Virus record (IMG/VR): IMGVR_UViG_3300050821_017626
Location: 32,262 to 96,261 of that record
Strand: one strand, 5' to 3'
DNA: 64,000 nt
Source of the DNA: a virus
Within the stretch, counting starts at the first letter, position 1. The number at the start of each line of letters is the position of its first letter. Positions 2,944 to 62,675 of the stretch are shown here, one piece after another. The position numbers and the translations under genes were made by a program. The notes under the pieces were generated by a model, which saw nothing but the letters and a program-made list of their open reading frames with translations, did no database searches and was not told the origin of the DNA.

Positions 2944-3089
2944 CGAGTCCACCCTTCCCCGGTAGGAGCCCAATCGAGTCCGCCGGTATGGCGGCTGTTG
3001 AGAAGATGGGCCGCTAGGCGAGCGAGCCACGCGAAAGGAAAGCGGTAGATGGGACGGCCGTCGGATGGGCTGAAGACTTCATAGCGCAT
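2940..3089 (-). CDS. Small hypothetical protein, 49 aa (MRYEVFSPSDGRP...), below the ORF-track cutoff
   Basis: GAGGAGG RBS; stop overlaps the next start (ATGA). Confidence 0.65.
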   Translation of the reverse strand: MRYEVFSPSDGRPIYRFPFAWLARLAAHLLNSRHTGGLDWAPTGEGWTR

Positions 3090-4782: not shown

Positions 4783-4835
4783 CCCCTTTCGCCCATCGCT
4801 GGGCTCATCAGTACCCGACTAGCCGGGTAGAGGGG
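4783..4835 (-). ncRNA. Type III hammerhead ribozyme HH1
   Basis: Minus strand reads CCCC-UC^-UACCCGGCUAGUCGGGUA (stem I)-CUGAUGA-GCCCA GCGA UGGGC (stem II)-GAAA-GGGG (stem III). Complete core and three paired stems; cleavage predicted at 4830/4829. Confidence 0.92.
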
Positions 4836-5027
4836 TCACCGCTCCCGTAAGAGCGGTGAGGTGATGTATACATTGACGGTGGAGCCGTATTGGTCGCGAG
4901 TGGGCTCCAATTCAACAGTGACGACTTCAACAGGGTCGACGCGGTGAGGGAACTTGATAACTTCCGAGTCGATCATGGTCCCCAGCCGACCGTCGAAGGT
5001 GATGAGTTTCCCGAATACATACTTCAT
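4836..5027 (-). CDS. 63-aa hypothetical protein (MKYVFGKL...) bracketed by the two hammerheads
   Basis: ATG at 5027 follows AAAGGGG (stem III of HH2); TGA directly abuts HH1. Confidence 0.7.
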   Translation of the reverse strand: MKYVFGKLITFDGRLGTMIDSEVIKFPHRVDPVEVVTVELEPTRDQYGSTVNVYITSPLLRER

Positions 5028-5036
5028 GGTGTCGTT

Positions 5037-5088
5037 CCCCTTTCGGCTGTCGCCAGCCATCATCAGCGAGCGCTATTGCTCGGAGGGG
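5037..5088 (-). ncRNA. Type III hammerhead ribozyme HH2
   Basis: Minus strand reads CCCC-UC^-CGAGC AAUAGC GCUCG (stem I)-CUGAUGA-U-GGCUG GCGA CAGCC (stem II)-GAAA-GGGG; cleavage predicted at 5083/5082. Confidence 0.92.
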
Positions 5089-6060: not shown

Positions 6061-6480
6061 CCGTGCCTGTACCGTGCCTGTGGCCCAACCCATCTATAGT
6101 ATAGCACAGGGTGACGCTATGGGTCAATATGGGTGACGCGTTGGGTCAGGGTGAGGTGAGGGAGGGGGAGAGCTGGTGGGGGCCAGGATGGGGAGGAGAG
6201 GGGGAGCGGAAGGGATGGAGGCACGATACTGTTCGCAACTTCCGATAATATTTATTACGTTGCGAAGGTTTGATAGTCGCTAGGCACGGACTATCGAACT
6301 ATATGGGTATGACGTCGGAGCGTGACGGTATGATGGCTGTCAAAGAGGGGGCCGATTCACTCTTTTTACGACTGTCACAGGAGGCGCGCGGGTATGTCTA
6401 AGGGGCCATGAAATTTTTTCGAAAAAAGTAAAACCTTACTGGTGTAATTCATAGCTTCTAGGCACGACTGTTGGTATAAT
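6061..6480. promoter_or_regulatory. Non-coding divergence region with repeated AGGCACG motifs, a G-rich tract, hairpins and a dif-like site
   Basis: AGGCACG at 6061 and 6072 (reverse), 6219, 6282, 6460; G-run tract 6130-6220; gene strand switches here. Confidence 0.55.
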
Positions 6481-37553: not shown

Positions 37554-37820
37554 ATGGCAGACGATTTTGGTATGTCGGTTAACCCGGTGCTGGCGATGAG
37601 TATGCCTTCGGAGACTACCCCGAATGACGGATTCGTGAGCAACATTGGTCCCGAAAATCCATGCTACGGCCCTACGGCGCGTCAACCGGAGCACCTCGGG
37701 GAGCCCTTTATTGGCGCTTCCGGTCTGCCAATCCCGCCGTCGCTTCCTATCCACGCAGTTGATCCGTTTCGGTTGACGCATGGGGCGCCGGATTACGATA
37801 TTCATTGGGATCGTGGCTAA
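37554..37820 (+). CDS. Pro-rich hypothetical protein
   Basis: GAGG RBS; lies between ndk and the capsid polyprotein. Confidence 0.65.
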   Translation: MADDFGMSVNPVLAMSMPSETTPNDGFVSNIGPENPCYGPTARQPEHLGEPFIGASGLPIPPSLPIHAVDPFRLTHGAPDYDIHWDRG

Positions 37821-37824
37821 TCGA

Positions 37825-40800
37825 ATGCCCTATTCCTCGAAAAGTGAATTACCGGCTGCCGTAAAGCGCTTGCCAGGTCATGGCCAGCGCGTTTTCAAAT
37901 CGGCGTTTAATGCGGCGCACCGCCAATACTCGGGTGATGAAACGACGGCCTTCAAAGTTGCCTGGGCAGCGGTGAAGCACAAATACAAAAAGTCCGGCAA
38001 TGAATGGGTTGCCAAACAGGACGCTGGAGGAAGAACGGTGCATCAACTTCTTGCTGATCTAAAGACGTTTTATATGCGAGCCTTGGATCAGGCGGAAGTC
38101 GGTGACATGGTGCGGATCAAGGGTGCCATGGATCTGATCGACCAGGTAGCCCTCAATCCCGACAAACACGAGCCGCAGAACGATTTCCAGCAACTGCAGC
38201 AACTGCAAGGGAAGTGTGTTCTGGCACTTGGGTTCGATCTGACCCAGCACATGGGGTATACGCCGACTGTTCCTCACGAGCATGATTTCGCTGGCAGCCT
38301 CAATCACCGTATCCGCTGTGTTTGTAAAGCCGCCAAAGAGCAGATCCCGGAGTATCTTGGTCCTTGGGGTTTCGTCCTGGCCGTCTACCCCGATCACATT
38401 GTTACCTGCGCCGAGGACGACTATCTGGAAGGTTCAGATAAAGACTATTGGTGCGTGGAGTATGAGTTTGACGAGGATTGCGGCGAGGTAACTTTCGGCG
38501 ATGCGGAGCCAGTTGACGTGGCTACGATTGTCGTCAACAAGGGCGAGATGTCCGCGATGGATGGAGATGACGACGATACCCAGAGCCAGGATGCCCTTGG
38601 CCAAATGGAAGGCAAGGATGGTTCTGGCGAATACGGAAACACCAAGCCGAGCAAGGGGGAGTCCAACAAATCAGACGGCGATGGCCAGGATTTCAAAACT
38701 GACAATGGCCAGAAGTTTGGCAAGGCTGCCTACCTGATTATCGGCGATCCGAAATCCCCCTCTACCTGGAAGGTGCGCGTGGAAGAGACACCGGGCCATA
38801 TCACCGTTCCGCAGTTGGGCCGCGCTTATGCCGCGCTCACCAAGGGGTTTCGGGGTAACACGGTTCAAGCGGGGTCTGACGCGAAAACTGCTGCGCTTGC
38901 GAAGCTCAAGGGCCTCAACAAGACCCACGGCGGCGAGTGGCCGGGAGAGCAGGATCAGGGGGACATCCCTGATTGGCTGGCGCAGGGTAAGGACCCGCCG
39001 GGCGGCGATACGGAGCTTGTGCAGACGAACTCGGTGCAACTGCAGTGGGATGGGGAGAAGCATGAGACGGGCGTGATGCGGGTTAGTGGTGTGGCGACCC
39101 GCGCCAACGTGGTCAACTCCAAGAATGAGGTTTATCCGCTCGACGTTTGGCAGGACAACCTTCCTCGGCTGCAGCGGCTGGCGCAGGGCGGTAAACTCGT
39201 GGGCGAGTGCCAGCACCCTGCAGACGGCCGGGCTTCTCTTGATCGCACCTGTATCAAGTACGAAAAGTTGTGGTTGGACGGGAACGACCTGAAGTTCGAA
39301 GGGCTCATTCTTCCCACTGAGCCGCACGGCAAGAATATTCAACTCTTAATCCAGAACAACGTGGCGGTAGACCTTTCCAGCCGGGGGCGCGGCACCCTGA
39401 AGCAGGGGGATTGGGAAGGCGTGACGGGCGTTAGTATCGTACAGCGCGGATTTCGATGTGACGCTTTTGATCCTGTGGTAGCCGGGGCTTCTCCTGGCTC
39501 CCAAATAACCGACTGGCAGATGCAGTCAGCGGACCACAACGATACGGAGGAAGACGTGGAAACGAAGGAGCTATTGGAGAAAATCGCAGCCTCCATGGAA
39601 ACAGTGGGATCGCTGGCTGCGACGGTCGCGAAGCAGGGTGAGATTCTTGCGGAGTTGGGCAAGACGAAGGAAGTGACGCAGGACAAGAACACTGAGCCGA
39701 CGGCGGATGAGGTTCGGGCACAGAAGTTGAATGCCTCGCTCAACAAGATGGCGACCCGCCAGCGCATCGAGGATCTGACGCAGGAAATCAAGGAGCGGCG
39801 CAAGTGGGGCCAGCAGTGGGTGAACAAGTATCGCCAACTGATCGAGAACGCCAAGCCGGAGACGGAGGAGGCGGTGGATCAGGCGGCAAGCCGCGCGGAA
39901 GAGATTGTCGAAGGGATTCTCGATCAGGCGCCCCATTTCCCTGGCAACGGGTTTACCGTGCAGGCGGACAAGGGCGAGCGAGGCTTCCGCAATGGCTCGG
40001 AGTTGCTGGACGATCTGGTCAAGGACTTGCCCGACACAGAACTGGCGCAGAGCCATCCTGATACGGTGTTCCGGCGCCGGGACGAGCAGGGTAATCCGAT
40101 CTTCCCTGGCCATTTCCGCACGCCGCGCCGGCAGATGCGCAAGTGGATGGAGAATATCGCTCGCCATCAGGACGCGAACTTCAACGGGCCGGGCGCGTTG
40201 AAGGAGCTGGTGCTGCTCTCGCAGGGTTACGATCCGAGCTGCACCGCTGATCAGGTGCTCTTCCAGGATTGTTCCGCAGCCGGGTCGACGACCGTGGGGA
40301 ACAGCGGCGCACCGCAGTCGGCCATCTTTATCTTCCCGCTGGTGCGGCGGGTCTTCCCGCAGTTGATTGCCACGGAGCTGGCCTCGGTGCAGCCGATGGA
40401 CCGGCCGGATGGCAAAATCTTCTTCCTCGACTCTTACCGGCAGAGCCCTGGCGTTGACTCAAAGGACAGTGCGGGCGCGACGGTGAGCGGGGAGATGCGG
40501 ATCGACCGGTCGGACTCGTTCAGTTCGAGCTACTCGAATAACCCTGGTGAGTGCCAGGCAGTCAACACCATTCAGCTTCGGTTGTCCTCGATCTCGGTGA
40601 CGGCGGATAACAAGAAGTTGCAGGCGGTGTGGACGATTGAGGAACTGCAGGACCTTCGGGCTTACCATGGGCTGGATGCTTCGCTGGAGTTGGTGGGTTC
40701 GCTCTCGCGCGAGATTGCGCTGGAGTGGAATGAGACGGTGCTCAACGAGCTTACTACTGGCGCTACCGGAGCAAATCTAACGTTTGGAACGACCAATCCT

Positions 40801-41289
40801 ACTGGCTACACGCAGAAGGAATGGGACGAGTACCTTTCGAGGATGCTCGACTCCGCAAGCGCACAGGTGTTCAAGAAGCGCCATGGTGATATTACTCATA
40901 TTGTGGCAGGGCCGGATGCTTGGGTAAAACTCGCAGCGACCTTCCGGGTGGGCACCCATCCGAGGGACGGAGCCAATCCTGAGCAGTATGCAGGGCTGAC
41001 TTTGACGCCGTTCATGCAGGGAACTTTGTCGAATGTCAAGACTTACAAGACAAGTTTCTGGTCTGGGGTCAACACCAATACGATTATGGTATTGCGCAGA
41101 GGGGCTGATTGGTCCGATACCCCTTATGTCTGGGCGCCTTATCTTGATTACGTTTCGCCCGTTCTGACTCTCCCGAATACATTCAACCAGAATCAGGGCA
41201 TTATGAGCCGGGTCGCTCACAAGGTTGTCGTTTCGGAAGCGATTGCCAACATCTCAATCCAGCAAGGGGTGACTGGAGTTCCTTTGTAG
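37825..41289 (+). CDS. Capsid polyprotein: ChaB domain, linker domains, T4 gp21-like prohead protease (about 39067-39525), scaffold, T4 gp23-like major capsid protein (about 40267-41289)
   Basis: ChaB PYSS.SELP..V..LP.H.Q..F..AFNAA...AWAAVK..YKK; protease GECQHP, SSRGRG, FDPV; capsid LVRRVFPQLIA.EL.SVQPM..PDG, KLQAVWT.E..QDL.AYHGLDA..EL, YVWAPY. Confidence 0.92.
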   Translation: MPYSSKSELPAAVKRLPGHGQRVFKSAFNAAHRQYSGDETTAFKVAWAAVKHKYKKSGNEWVAKQDAGGRTVHQLLADLKTFYMRALDQAEVGDMVRIKGAMDLIDQVALNPDKHEPQNDFQQLQQLQGKCVLALGFDLTQHMGYTPTVPHEHDFAGSLNHRIRCVCKAAKEQIPEYLGPWGFVLAVYPDHIVTCAEDDYLEGSDKDYWCVEYEFDEDCGEVTFGDAEPVDVATIVVNKGEMSAMDGDDDDTQSQDALGQMEGKDGSGEYGNTKPSKGESNKSDGDGQDFKTDNGQKFGKAAYLIIGDPKSPSTWKVRVEETPGHITVPQLGRAYAALTKGFRGNTVQAGSDAKTAALAKLKGLNKTHGGEWPGEQDQGDIPDWLAQGKDPPGGDTELVQTNSVQLQWDGEKHETGVMRVSGVATRANVVNSKNEVYPLDVWQDNLPRLQRLAQGGKLVGECQHPADGRASLDRTCIKYEKLWLDGNDLKFEGLILPTEPHGKNIQLLIQNNVAVDLSSRGRGTLKQGDWEGVTGVSIVQRGFRCDAFDPVVAGASPGSQITDWQMQSADHNDTEEDVETKELLEKIAASMETVGSLAATVAKQGEILAELGKTKEVTQDKNTEPTADEVRAQKLNASLNKMATRQRIEDLTQEIKERRKWGQQWVNKYRQLIENAKPETEEAVDQAASRAEEIVEGILDQAPHFPGNGFTVQADKGERGFRNGSELLDDLVKDLPDTELAQSHPDTVFRRRDEQGNPIFPGHFRTPRRQMRKWMENIARHQDANFNGPGALKELVLLSQGYDPSCTADQVLFQDCSAAGSTTVGNSGAPQSAIFIFPLVRRVFPQLIATELASVQPMDRPDGKIFFLDSYRQSPGVDSKDSAGATVSGEMRIDRSDSFSSSYSNNPGECQAVNTIQLRLSSISVTADNKKLQAVWTIEELQDLRAYHGLDASLELVGSLSREIALEWNETVLNELTTGATGANLTFGTTNPTGYTQKEWDEYLSRMLDSASAQVFKKRHGDITHIVAGPDAWVKLAATFRVGTHPRDGANPEQYAGLTLTPFMQGTLSNVKTYKTSFWSGVNTNTIMVLRRGADWSDTPYVWAPYLDYVSPVLTLPNTFNQNQGIMSRVAHKVVVSEAIANISIQQGVTGVPL

Positions 41290-58958: not shown

Positions 58959-59621
58959 GTGGCCTTTACCGCCCGTCTTGGCACTGCGAATAGTCAACTC
59001 TCCCACATAGAGCTTGGTGCGGGTGATAGTGGCGGCGCTACGCTTCGGACGATCAGCGCCAAAGCCAACATCCTCAATACAACCAAGCAGACGATCTCGG
59101 CCAAGGCGAACCTGCAGAGTCCGCGCTTCACGATTTCGGCGAAAGCGAACATCTACAACGCCACCTCGCGGACGATCTCGGCTAAAGCGCGCCTGCTGCC
59201 TGGCCCCGGCAATCAACAGAGCATTTCCGCCAAGGCGCGGATAACGGCGGGTGGTGTCAAAACCATCTCGGCCAAGGCCAACCTTGTGCCAGGGCCAAAG
59301 ACGATCTCGGCCAAGGCGAACATCCTGGCTTTGGTTACGACCTCGCTGGAGGTCGACTACAAGATCGCTGTATCGACTACCGCGACGCTGGTGGTCAACT
59401 TTACGGCAGGCGTCCCGTTCCCGACCTTCCAGACGATCAGCGCCAAGGCCAATATCGTTCTGCCAATCTCTACCGGGTTGAGCGTGTCCTACAGCGTGAA
59501 CTACCAGATGCCTACCGGACCAGTGACGAGGCCGACCCAGCGTTCGTATATAAGATCCGTGCGCACCATCAGTGCCAAGGCGTCCATTCTCTCGCACCGG
59601 GGGCCGCAGATTTTCGAGTAG
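58959..59621 (+). CDS. Tail protein with nine TISAKA(N/R/S) repeats
   Basis: Repeats visible in the translation. Confidence 0.75.
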   Translation: MAFTARLGTANSQLSHIELGAGDSGGATLRTISAKANILNTTKQTISAKANLQSPRFTISAKANIYNATSRTISAKARLLPGPGNQQSISAKARITAGGVKTISAKANLVPGPKTISAKANILALVTTSLEVDYKIAVSTTATLVVNFTAGVPFPTFQTISAKANIVLPISTGLSVSYSVNYQMPTGPVTRPTQRSYIRSVRTISAKASILSHRGPQIFE

Positions 59622-59683
59622 TTATACACAGTTATAACGAGTTATATATAGATTTGTGTATAACTCGTTATAACTGTGTATAA
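59622..59683 (+). repeat. 29-bp AT-rich inverted repeat (hairpin, GATT loop)
   Basis: Three mismatches, all U-G pairs on the + strand transcript. Confidence 0.85.
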
Positions 59684-59714
59684 ATGAACACAAAATCGGC
59701 ATATCCATTTCAAT

Positions 59715-62675
59715 ATGTCCAATTACGGCTTCATTTTAGACACATCTAATCAGCGCCTGACCCAGTGGGATCATACCACTGGCGCTTTCGTGCGTGACAT
59801 CGGCCAATACAATTCCTCCTTTTCCCCCTTCTTCAACACGAATTTTGATTCGGTCACAGGGCTCCCTCTCTCCTTCGCCCTCGGCCCCACCGATTTCGTC
59901 CTCCCCTGCGGCCTGACCAGCGATGCGGCCAGTGTCTACGCGCTGGATGTGATGACCTGCCGGGTACTGCGCTTCGATGCTGCAACCGGAGGCGTGGTCC
60001 AGACCTTCGGGGGCAAGCGCGGCATCGGTGCGGGCCGTATTACCCCTGATTCTACCAAGCGCAGTATCCTTGCAGTCGCCAACAGCACCGTCTGGCTGAC
60101 CGATAATGCCGGCGGCTTCGTCAGTCAGTTCAGCCCCACCGGGGTTTTCCAGAACGACTACTCGATTGCGACCTGGGCGACTGCAGCGGGGTTTGGCAGC
60201 GTCGATCAGGTCACGGGGATTGCCTGGGACCTCATTCGCGGCCACTATTGGGCGCTGGGCCAGGACAGCGCCAACTGCTACCTGATCCGGGTCAGCAGCT
60301 CGGGGGTGGCTCAGTCTACGGGGAACTTCAACCTCACCACGCGACTCTCGATCCCTGGCCACAGCGGGACGAACGCCGGCCGCATTCTCACGCGCGGGCT
60401 GAAGTTCTTCGGCGGCTATCTCTACTTCTGGTCGCAGAGCAAGGTCTATCGGTTCGACCCGCTCAACCCTGACGGGGATCTGACGCTCTACACGGATGCC
60501 AACGGGGCAATCGCTCCTGGTTGGATCGATGCCACCGGTAGCACGCTGGCGGTCACCTCCACGGCTGCCGCCAACAACGCCAACTGCCTGCAGGTGCTTA
60601 CCCTGCCAGGCGGCAGCATCAGCCGCTCCTATGCCCCTGCATCCATTCCTGCCAGTGGGGCCACGGATCATGTCTCGCTGCCGTGGGACAACGCTATCGT
60701 CCCTTACGCCGAGGACACGAACACTCGCGCGGCAACGACGATCTCGGCCAAGGCGCGAGTGAGTGGGACCACCCGACAAAGCATCCAGGCGAAGGCGAAC
60801 CTATCCGGGAAGACAACTCACACGATTTCCGCCAAGGCGCGGATCACCCTTGGCACCCAACAGCAACTGCAAGCGCTGGCGCGGGTTGATCTGCCCGCAG
60901 GTGATGGCGACTCCAGCATCTATGACTGGGAGATCGCCGATAGCTTCGGGAACTTCTCGCGTGGTTTTACCATCAACTACCGCAAGTCGATCCCAGTCCA
61001 ATGCGGCTTCCAGGTTGATCTCTGGGCGGGCTACGACTATAACCGACTGCACTTGATGACTGGAGAGGTTGACACCGTTACCCGCGTCAAGGGGCCTGAT
61101 ACAGTCAATTATCAGGCTTCCGGTCGGGATCAGGGAGCGCGTGGCCTGGAGTCGATTCGCATTACCCGGCCTTGGGTTTCGCGACCTCCGAACAATTTGC
61201 CGCTGGCTTCGCAGATCATCAAGGATAGCGCCGCACTCATTGGTCTGCAGGTGGGAGCCCTGGAGTTTCCTGACTATCCGCTCTGGAACACTTACACGGT
61301 TTACGGAAAGAATATTCTGGAAATTTGCACGGAGTTGCTGCAGCCGTGGAATTTGTTTGCGCGGGTAGAGTATGTGCCGGTTGTGCGTAATAAGGTACTC
61401 TCGATCCTAAAAGTGGACTGGCTCAATGTGCCCACTGGTGGCTACCAGATCCGGCAACAACACTGGAATCAGATCAGTCGCCATCAGGAACTGTATTTGA
61501 ACGCGCCGCGCCTGAATGAAGTCAAGAACCTCATCGTGCGGGGCGCGGCTTATAGGGCGCCGGCCACGAACCTGGGAATACAGACGCGGGTTGAGTATAG
61601 CCGAGCCACGGCGGGGCAGGATGTGACGACCGCCTTTCTGGGGGAGATTGGCAAGCCGGGGGATGCGCCGACCGCTACCAAGTCGGGTGTGGAACCGCCC
61701 ATGGTCATCACGGAAACGGTGGTGGTTGAGACCCTGTTCTGTGATAAATTGATGACGCGGGATGAGAAGATTTATTCGAATTCCCATGAATTGGTGGCAG
61801 GGGTGACGGAGGAGTCGACTTCGGGGCTGTTGCTGATCGCACGAACCCAGGAACAATATTATTATATCGATCCTTACGTCAATCAGCAGGGACAGATTAT
61901 TGCTGGTAACGTGAATTCAATTTATCAGGCCACGGTTGTCGGGCCTGGGCAGAATTCTCTTCTATGGATAATCGATTCCACTCATTCAGGGATTGTGGAT
62001 GTTACTACAGGCGGCCAGACTACCCACTTTTTTCAAGAGGATGCAAGAACAAAGACGGAATATTTCTACGACGTGAATCAGCAAGTCCAGCAAGAAACCC
62101 AGACTCATCATAAATTTGACACGACGACGAATCAATGGGTTTTGGATTCTTTGACAAGTCGAACGCATTCACAAGTAACTGGTGGCGCAATAAGGACCAA
62201 TTTCTCCACATTTGTCTTTGACAATTCAATTTTCAAGTTGAGCACCCGAGATTTTCAGGTTGTAGGAGGTGCCCGGCCAGACCCGAACGCACCGCAACCG
62301 CGAGGCTGTCTTGTGTCTCATCAAGTGCAAAGTCCTATGGGGGTAATAGATAGCCAGGGCCATGTTGTGGACTATGGGTCTGCTTATTACAACTGGCAAA
62401 CAGAACTTCCGTATATAGGCCAGAGAGAATCGGATGCGGTTCTTGCTAACGCCTTGGCGGAGCAAGCCTTTCAATTACAAGGATATCGGTGGGAAGAGGT
62501 ATCAATTGTCAGCGTTCTAAACCCTAACTTAAGGTCTCACGAGCCTGTTTCCGTGGAGGTCGAGCCAGGACTCTTCCATGACTACTGGTTGAGCGAGGTC
62601 CAACACAGGTTCACCGTTGACCGAGCAGAGACAATGATTAAGGCGAAACGCTTAACCCTTGAAGATGTACCGTAA
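59715..62675 (+). CDS. Large tail-tip protein: beta-propeller (NHL-like) N-terminus, TISAKA linker, hub-like C-terminus
   Basis: LPCGL...VYALD..RVLRFD repeats; four SAKA-type repeats; C-terminal NPNL...V.V...YWL.EVQHRF. Confidence 0.7.
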   Translation: MSNYGFILDTSNQRLTQWDHTTGAFVRDIGQYNSSFSPFFNTNFDSVTGLPLSFALGPTDFVLPCGLTSDAASVYALDVMTCRVLRFDAATGGVVQTFGGKRGIGAGRITPDSTKRSILAVANSTVWLTDNAGGFVSQFSPTGVFQNDYSIATWATAAGFGSVDQVTGIAWDLIRGHYWALGQDSANCYLIRVSSSGVAQSTGNFNLTTRLSIPGHSGTNAGRILTRGLKFFGGYLYFWSQSKVYRFDPLNPDGDLTLYTDANGAIAPGWIDATGSTLAVTSTAAANNANCLQVLTLPGGSISRSYAPASIPASGATDHVSLPWDNAIVPYAEDTNTRAATTISAKARVSGTTRQSIQAKANLSGKTTHTISAKARITLGTQQQLQALARVDLPAGDGDSSIYDWEIADSFGNFSRGFTINYRKSIPVQCGFQVDLWAGYDYNRLHLMTGEVDTVTRVKGPDTVNYQASGRDQGARGLESIRITRPWVSRPPNNLPLASQIIKDSAALIGLQVGALEFPDYPLWNTYTVYGKNILEICTELLQPWNLFARVEYVPVVRNKVLSILKVDWLNVPTGGYQIRQQHWNQISRHQELYLNAPRLNEVKNLIVRGAAYRAPATNLGIQTRVEYSRATAGQDVTTAFLGEIGKPGDAPTATKSGVEPPMVITETVVVETLFCDKLMTRDEKIYSNSHELVAGVTEESTSGLLLIARTQEQYYYIDPYVNQQGQIIAGNVNSIYQATVVGPGQNSLLWIIDSTHSGIVDVTTGGQTTHFFQEDARTKTEYFYDVNQQVQQETQTHHKFDTTTNQWVLDSLTSRTHSQVTGGAIRTNFSTFVFDNSIFKLSTRDFQVVGGARPDPNAPQPRGCLVSHQVQSPMGVIDSQGHVVDYGSAYYNWQTELPYIGQRESDAVLANALAEQAFQLQGYRWEEVSIVSVLNPNLRSHEPVSVEVEPGLFHDYWLSEVQHRFTVDRAETMIKAKRLTLEDVP

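Follow-up and report, generated by a model that had tools for sequence, protein, structure and literature searches.

The locus described here raises the question of why a virus would place two self-cleaving hammerhead motifs on either side of a single small open reading frame, and what would become of the RNA lying between them. The stretch of DNA analysed, referred to below as the window, is 64,000 nucleotides long and corresponds to bases 32262-96261 of a 96,261-bp IMG/VR viral contig with an estimated completeness of 79%. The contig carries genes for a portal protein, a prohead protease, a major capsid protein and an HNH endonuclease, and the capsid and protease share approximately 27% identity with those of jumbo and T4-like phages. 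No relatives of the phage were returned by blastn against GenBank phages, and no portal-related loci were found in the collections searched. Small ORFs on the minus strand densely fill the left 22 kb of the window. Elsewhere, at 37780-41289 on the plus strand, a single 1169-aa ORF has two matches, to a head maturation protease over residues 424-627 and to a major head protein over residues 833-1149, as though protease and capsid were fused or a frameshift or stop had gone unrecognised. At 59613-59694 a long hairpin or palindrome, with sub-threshold matches to several microRNA-precursor families on both strands (36 bits at most), just precedes a 986-aa ORF starting at 59715.

The two motifs at issue, listed in the order in which they would be transcribed, are the following:

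5088-5037, minus strand: HH2, of type III, in which A9 is followed by one extra U, predicted to cut between 5083 and 5082.
4835-4783, minus strand: HH1, a fully canonical type III hammerhead, predicted to cut between 4830 and 4829.

Direct reading gave CCCC-U-C^UACCCG-GCUAGU-CGGGUA-CUGAUGA-GCCCA-GCGA-UGGGC-GAA-A-GGGG for HH1 and CCCC-U-C^CGAGC-AAUAGC-GCUCG-CUGAUGA-U-GGCUG-GCGA-CAGCC-GAA-A-GGGG for HH2, with the caret at the predicted cut. The core (C3 U4 G5 A6 N7 G8 A9, followed by G12 A13 A14) is exact in HH1 and the same in HH2 save for an inserted U between A9 and G10.1, which is the sole departure from the canonical form and may slow HH2. HH1 is canonical at all defining positions (C3-A9, G10.1-C11.1, G12A13A14, A15.1-U16.1 and C17), and the A15.1-U16.1 pair, C17 and the G10.1-C11.1 pair are present in both motifs. 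Each is built of three helices of 5-7, 5 and 5 bp; loops close stems I and II, and stem III is left open. The stem III of HH2 is identical to that of HH1. Its stem I (CGAGC/GCUCG) and stem II (GGCUG/CAGCC) are its own. Although the stems differ, UAG is retained in loop I of both motifs and GCGA in loop II, the two loops between which a tertiary contact would be needed for fast cleavage at cellular Mg2+. The first base of HH1 directly follows the TGA of a 63-aa ORF, HH2 ends 9 nt before the ATG of the same ORF, and the predicted cuts lie 253 nt apart.

A structural descriptor applied to both strands of the whole 96,261-bp contig gave exactly two matches, HH1 and HH2. When the whole contig was shuffled 1500 times with a first-order Markov model, no matches were obtained at 5 bp or more per helix and five at 4 bp or more. 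The three-way junction was both the minimum-energy and the centroid fold of each motif, alone as well as with its native flanks. A scan of the contig for type II hammerheads gave only weak 3-bp matches, which we rejected as chance. An earlier reading, made from the letters alone and referred to here as the sequence-only reading, had described two complete minus-strand hammerhead cores precisely flanking one small ORF, with HH2 as its leader. The direct reading, the descriptor, the shuffles and the folds bear out this description, and the cuts, the 253-nt product and the ORF limits that it had given are all correct.

One check proposed in that reading, a search with the Rfam hammerhead models in Infernal, failed to match either motif. 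No ribozyme was found with Rfam at gathering scores, and RF00008, whose gathering score is 48.5 bits, gave no match at E<=10 for the whole contig or for shorter inputs. The weak Hammerhead_II alignment obtained (15 bits) was discarded, since it draws the upstream hairpin wrongly into the motif. RF00008, even at E<=10, gave no match on the textbook type III motifs of comparison loci from phage-like contigs (L008, L015, L031 and L039), and Rfam was without a match in seven loci, besides the present one, that have canonical type III motifs. The Rfam type III model thus appears to be blind to this phage subfamily, and its silence is not evidence against the motifs. Annotation pipelines that rely on RF00008 will miss these hammerheads. 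Because RF00008 gives no match, the hammerhead call rests on the descriptor, on a covariance model of our own and on covariation.

The covariance model was built from eight type III motifs. It scored HH1 at 66.8 bits and HH2 at 53.8 bits, with the rest of the contig at 13.6 bits or below, and it found 54 hammerheads in 88 sources. The alignment used for covariation was fitted to this model, MAFFT having misaligned HH1 against HH2. Across the 54 hammerheads 96.5% of cells were paired, and changes on both sides of a pair were seen in 234 cells compared to 59 in shuffles, with 14 of the 16 pairs showing them. The covariation score was 0.742, as against 0.168 for shuffled and 0.05-0.12 for slid controls. 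Such strong covariation, with stems changed yet paired and loops kept, is what selection on the fold would produce, and the suggestion that the differing but paired stems I and II of HH1 and HH2 reflect selection on structure is upheld on this wider set. Judged on their sequences, HH1 and HH2 are very probably genuine ribozymes.

The hammerheads lie within what is likely a single early transcript, whose remaining features, from 5' to 3', are these:

6127-6098, minus strand: sigma-70-like promoter, TTGACC-18 nt-TATACT, TG-extended, recognised by consensus match only.
5961-5815, minus strand: the unit's first gene, an orphan ORF of 48 aa with GAGGAG as its Shine-Dalgarno, ending 12 nt before the twister match.
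5802-5750, minus strand: probable type-P1 twister (RF03160, 37.5 bits), with an inferred cut between U5798 and A5797.
5616-5500, minus strand: 38-aa hydrophobic peptide ORF, an orphan, in the twister-to-HH2 segment.
5489-5328, minus strand: 53-aa orphan ORF, in the same segment.
5335-5089, minus strand: structured 247-nt stretch without a convincing ORF, directly upstream of HH2.
5027-4836, minus strand: 63-aa orphan ORF including its TGA stop, with a coding signal in its codon usage.
4859-4836, minus strand: predicted 10-bp hairpin with a UACG tetraloop, spanning the last codons and stop of the 63-aa ORF and abutting HH1 without a gap.
4744-4655, minus strand: 29-aa hydrophobic peptide ORF, an orphan, downstream of HH1 on the same transcript.
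4652-4302, minus strand: 116-aa Cys-rich orphan ORF, also downstream of HH1 on the same transcript.

The promoter at 6127-6098 is the likely start of a transcript carrying all three ribozymes, and no terminator-like sites were found on the minus strand between it (6098) and position 3000. The 63-aa frame had the best codon-usage score of the six frames (0.166 bits/codon compared to a training mean of 0.149, with a GC3 of 0.70), a score equal to that of the long structural genes. When searched among 5.8 billion proteins the ORF retrieved only itself, with no related loci. Pfam and PHROG gave no match to it, the ESM Atlas gave chance-level matches at 0.85, and ten neighbouring ORFs were also without a Pfam or PHROGs match. 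Very small hydrophobic peptides (29 and 38 aa) adjoin the ribozymes, and small membrane peptides also flank the hammerheads of L166, a locus considered below. The stretch at 5335-5089 has a minimum free energy of -107.9 kcal/mol (z -4.47), with none of 200 shuffles as stable. Within it lie the repeat CAGGATGAGA, present twice, and a perfect palindrome of 20 nt, CCTTCCTTATATAAGGAAGG. A compound hairpin is predicted at 5143-5091, ending 2 nt before HH2. The stretch, unmatched by any Rfam family, may represent another structured RNA carried by the fragment that runs from the twister to HH2.

The RF03160 match at 5802-5750 had an E value of 3e-6 locally and of 1.5e-4 for the whole window against all families, and falls short of the gathering score, 67.2 bits. 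It retains the conserved UAA, GCC and CAAGCC and lacks the optional P3 stem. The pseudoknot partners CCC/GGG appear to be replaced by UGC/GCA, which could still pair. The match sits directly after the 48-aa ORF. It shares strand and transcript with HH2, which lies approximately 700 nt further downstream, and it probably belongs to the same ribozyme cluster as HH1 and HH2. Association of twisters with hammerheads near phage genes is known (Rfam RF03160; review PMC6765202), and the present case resembles it in that the twister-like motif shares strand and transcript with the hammerheads. It differs in its sub-gathering score and in the absence of the optional P3, which leave its activity less certain than that of the hammerheads.

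Two features at the edges of the hammerheads bear on what the cuts might do. The hairpin at 4859-4836 would, from its predicted fold, be the last structure at the 3' end of the RNA that is released. Of the 45 type III hammerheads in loci L008-L122 and the window, 25 have a hairpin (6 bp or more) whose last base lies 0-1 nt ahead of the motif, compared to 4-6% at control positions chosen at random or upstream of gene starts, and the abutting hairpins often carry UUCG, UACG or GNRA tetraloops. On the other side of the ribozyme, the 3' strand of the HH2 stem III, AGGGG, occupies 5041-5037 and has a predicted duplex of -7.8 kcal/mol with an E. coli-type anti-Shine-Dalgarno sequence, comparable to those of neighbouring genes. 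A start codon lies within 9 nt of the end of 9 of 13 GGGG-type hammerheads but only 5 of 34 other type III hammerheads (Fisher p 6e-4, with some of the loci near-duplicates). The AGGGG of HH2 is better explained, on this sequence evidence, as doubling as the Shine-Dalgarno of the 63-aa ORF. The argument covers HH2 only, since the GGGG of HH1 is followed by no ATG nearer than 38 nt. Both the abutting hairpin and a ribosome-binding site within stem III are seen again in contigs that are unrelated, and neither was found described in the literature searched, PMC3088659 included. If confirmed, the combination would mean that phage hammerheads make stable 3' ends without terminating transcription and tie translation to cleavage.

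We then asked how common such a layout is. A search of viral contigs in which only stem II was fixed (CUGAUGAGCCC...GGGCGAAA) matched at least 120 stretches, from which 80 loci were taken. These comparison loci were gathered by sequence pattern with near-duplicates included, so that the counts are partly non-independent: the 80 loci, from at least 120 matching stretches, held 144 hammerheads, among which 73 pairs were neighbours on the same strand, spaced 639 nt apart at the median. Of the adjacent pairs in this same sample (80 of at least 120 matches), 18 of 73 were no more than 400 nt apart, and most of these enclosed a single ORF of 63-102 aa. A metagenome search with the same stem III as at this locus gave 38 matches, about nine of them real hammerheads, and a stricter CCCC/GGGG pattern gave no match in metagenomes. 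In viral contigs three matches to the CCCC/GGGG stem III pattern were read as chance, two lying in coding sequence and one lacking a paired stem II.

Three of the comparison loci, L031 (a metagenome contig), L015 and L166 (a Planctomycetaceae MAG contig), hold cassettes of the same anatomy. In each the order is a hairpin, a type III hammerhead, GGGG, 6-7 nt (5-9 nt in the anatomy at large), an ATG opening an ORF of 72-75 aa, a second hairpin, a second type III hammerhead and the next ATG, with the hammerheads spaced 302-314 nt apart. L031:826-1232 (plus strand) and L166:2866-3258 (minus strand) are homologous across the entire cassette. Their cargo proteins share 51% identity, and between the almost identical ribozymes there is one compensatory change in stem I. 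The ORF has diverged in its middle, its ends and the ribozymes being near-identical. In at least one lineage, therefore, cassettes of a ribozyme, an ORF and a second ribozyme are conserved, with the ribozymes more constrained than the cargo. The search of related phages for such cassettes that the sequence-only reading had called for thus succeeded in part, with parallel cassettes in L031, L015 and L166 but no close relative of the phage itself. The 63-aa ORF was also compared with the L166/L031 cargo and at an E value of 7.8 was judged unrelated. The 3' flank of the L166 cassette, GGGGAACGACGATG, resembles that of HH2, GGGGAACGACACCATG, a possible hint at the host.

The best-supported explanation, which the sequence-only reading had offered as its second option, is a cassette for processing early polycistronic mRNA. 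The layout is common in phage contigs and matches that described by Perreault et al. [quoted passage not shown] Later reviews favour mRNA processing while still calling the function open (PMC6765202). With moderate confidence, and from the arrangement of the motifs, we consider it probable that the hammerheads and the probable twister cut the early transcript into discrete pieces with protected ends and with the ribosome-binding site unmasked at HH2. Transcription would start near 6090 and, because no U-tracts follow the hairpins, would read through them, with the ribozymes folding and cutting as the transcript is made. Four pieces would be expected: one with the promoter, the 48-aa ORF and the twister; one with the 38-aa and 53-aa ORFs and the 247-nt stretch, extending to HH2; one with the 63-aa ORF, extending to HH1; and one with the 29-aa and 116-aa ORFs and onward. 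At each hammerhead cut the upstream RNA would end in a stable tetraloop hairpin and CCCCUC with a 2',3'-cyclic phosphate, which should slow 3' exonucleases, and the downstream RNA would begin with a 5'-OH and a compact ribozyme fold, which should make it a poor substrate for 5'-end-dependent decay. Cutting by HH2 would also remove the pairing strand of AGGGG, freeing the Shine-Dalgarno 9 nt before the 63-aa ATG and allowing this gene to be translated independently of its upstream context. The net product would be a 253-nt single-gene message with defined ends. Against the unmasking, folding predicts that the 3' tail of the released RNA pairs with AGGGG once more, which would hide the Shine-Dalgarno again.

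That predicted re-pairing is also where a different outcome would begin, the retrozyme-like, protein-coding circular RNA proposed in the sequence-only reading. Here the CCCCUC>p tail would pair with the AGGGG of HH2 and be joined to it, by reverse ligation or by host RtcB, to give an exonuclease-resistant coding circle with the predicted junction ...GGUGACCCCUC joined to CGAGCAAUAG... The end chemistry of hammerheads suits RtcB. The stem III strands of HH1 and HH2 are identical, a nicked hammerhead with adjoining ends reappears in both the minimum-energy and the centroid fold of the 253-nt product, and L031, L166 and L015 have the same compatible stem III geometry. The claim that end-joining through the shared stem III would rebuild a hammerhead accordingly holds as a prediction for this RNA, but the compatibility is not general: the pairs in L053 and L056, 307-309 nt apart with one ORF each, match at only 2 of the 5 bp of stem III, and therefore the general function of such pairs cannot depend on rebuilding the ribozyme. 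The ends of the 253-nt RNA re-pair because paralogous type III ribozymes share stem III, and the shared GGGG is explained by its Shine-Dalgarno role together with duplication of a hairpin-ribozyme-AACGA unit. In a circle or nicked circle, moreover, the Shine-Dalgarno would stay inside stem III. RtcB, RNA_ligase (Rnl-type) and RVT_1 were not found on the contig (79% complete), and Perreault et al. searched for circular or spliced products of tandem sets and detected none (PMC3088659). With the features of retrozymes absent as well, the circular RNA is unsupported, and we regard both the circle and its predicted junction as improbable, allowing from the folds that some minor ligated fraction of the released RNA may form. 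We think it very improbable that in a subset of phages matched hammerhead pairs circularise the excised mRNA in a Tornado-like manner, with the hairpin-hammerhead-SD-ATG arrangement acting as a cleavage-gated translation switch.

The duplication just mentioned, of the hairpin-ribozyme-AACGA unit on either side of the 63-aa ORF, would also be expected if the hairpin-hammerhead units served as module boundaries that mark or move cassettes of accessory genes, as recombination linkers in moron-like fashion, with cleavage secondary. The genes carried between hammerheads in different contigs are unrelated orphans, the identity of flanked genes was not constant in the survey of Perreault et al. (PMC3088659), and the near-identical ribozymes and ORF ends of L031 and L166 around a diverged ORF middle would fit such exchange. 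The covariation, however, shows selection on the catalytic fold and not merely on the sequence of a recombination site, and the cores are intact. We consider this account unlikely, and it is compatible with processing. A further alternative is regulated or partial cleavage, in which at least one ribozyme would be deliberately slow or condition-dependent and the timing or dose of early genes would depend on how much of the RNA is cut. Regulated cleavage of phage hammerheads was raised by the same authors (PMC3088659). The inserted U after A9 of HH2 is consistent with it, as is the directly upstream 247-nt region (z -4.47), which could compete with or assist ribozyme folding. We nonetheless hold it to be improbable, since no ligand-binding or alternative fold was identified, HH2 is intact in its native-context minimum-energy fold, and HH1 is fully canonical. 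Processing of the early transcript remains the reading we prefer.

Set beside known systems, the locus most resembles the prophage clusters of Perreault et al. from 2011 (PMC3088659), in which same-strand hammerheads within 1-2 kb flank small genes of varying identity; here two same-strand hammerheads, spaced by 253 nt, enclose one ORF of a viral contig. As read from the sequence, it differs from that description in that both hammerheads are type III, stem III doubles as a Shine-Dalgarno and a hairpin abuts each ribozyme. With plant and animal retrozymes and viroid-like circular RNAs (PMC4918200, PMC7761336) it has in common a short unit flanked by type III hammerheads and a predicted released RNA with 5'-OH and 2',3'-cyclic phosphate ends that could rebuild the ribozyme. 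Unlike retrozymes, the cassette has no long terminal direct repeats, the similarity of its ends being limited to the ribozyme, part of the hairpin and AACGA, approximately 70 nt. Its interior is a coding ORF, whereas that of retrozymes is non-coding with primer-binding and polypurine tracts, and it is single-copy in a contig of phage DNA that has no reverse transcriptase. The cassette is not a member of a retrozyme or viroid-like RNA family.

Engineered ribozyme insulators and RBS-masking switches in bacteria include the RiboJ-type insulators and hammerhead aptazymes. The arrangement at HH2 resembles these in having a self-cleaving ribozyme directly 5' of a ribosome-binding site, where cleavage sets the 5' end and can expose the site. 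Unlike them, it is natural and recurs in several metagenomic contigs, and its effect on translation is predicted. Twister expression platforms have also been used as engineered switches (PMC5052635). The function of self-cleaving ribozymes carried by phage and bacterial genomes has yet to be settled (PMC6765202, PMC6155905). Tandem hammerheads laid out in this way have been on record for phages since 2011, and no new kind of element is added here; the abutting hairpin and the ribosome-binding site within stem III are modest additions to the known layout. What the locus offers is a compact test case: one promoter lies ahead of three ribozymes, which represent two classes and span no more than 1.1 kb, and the predicted product carries a single gene and is of defined size.
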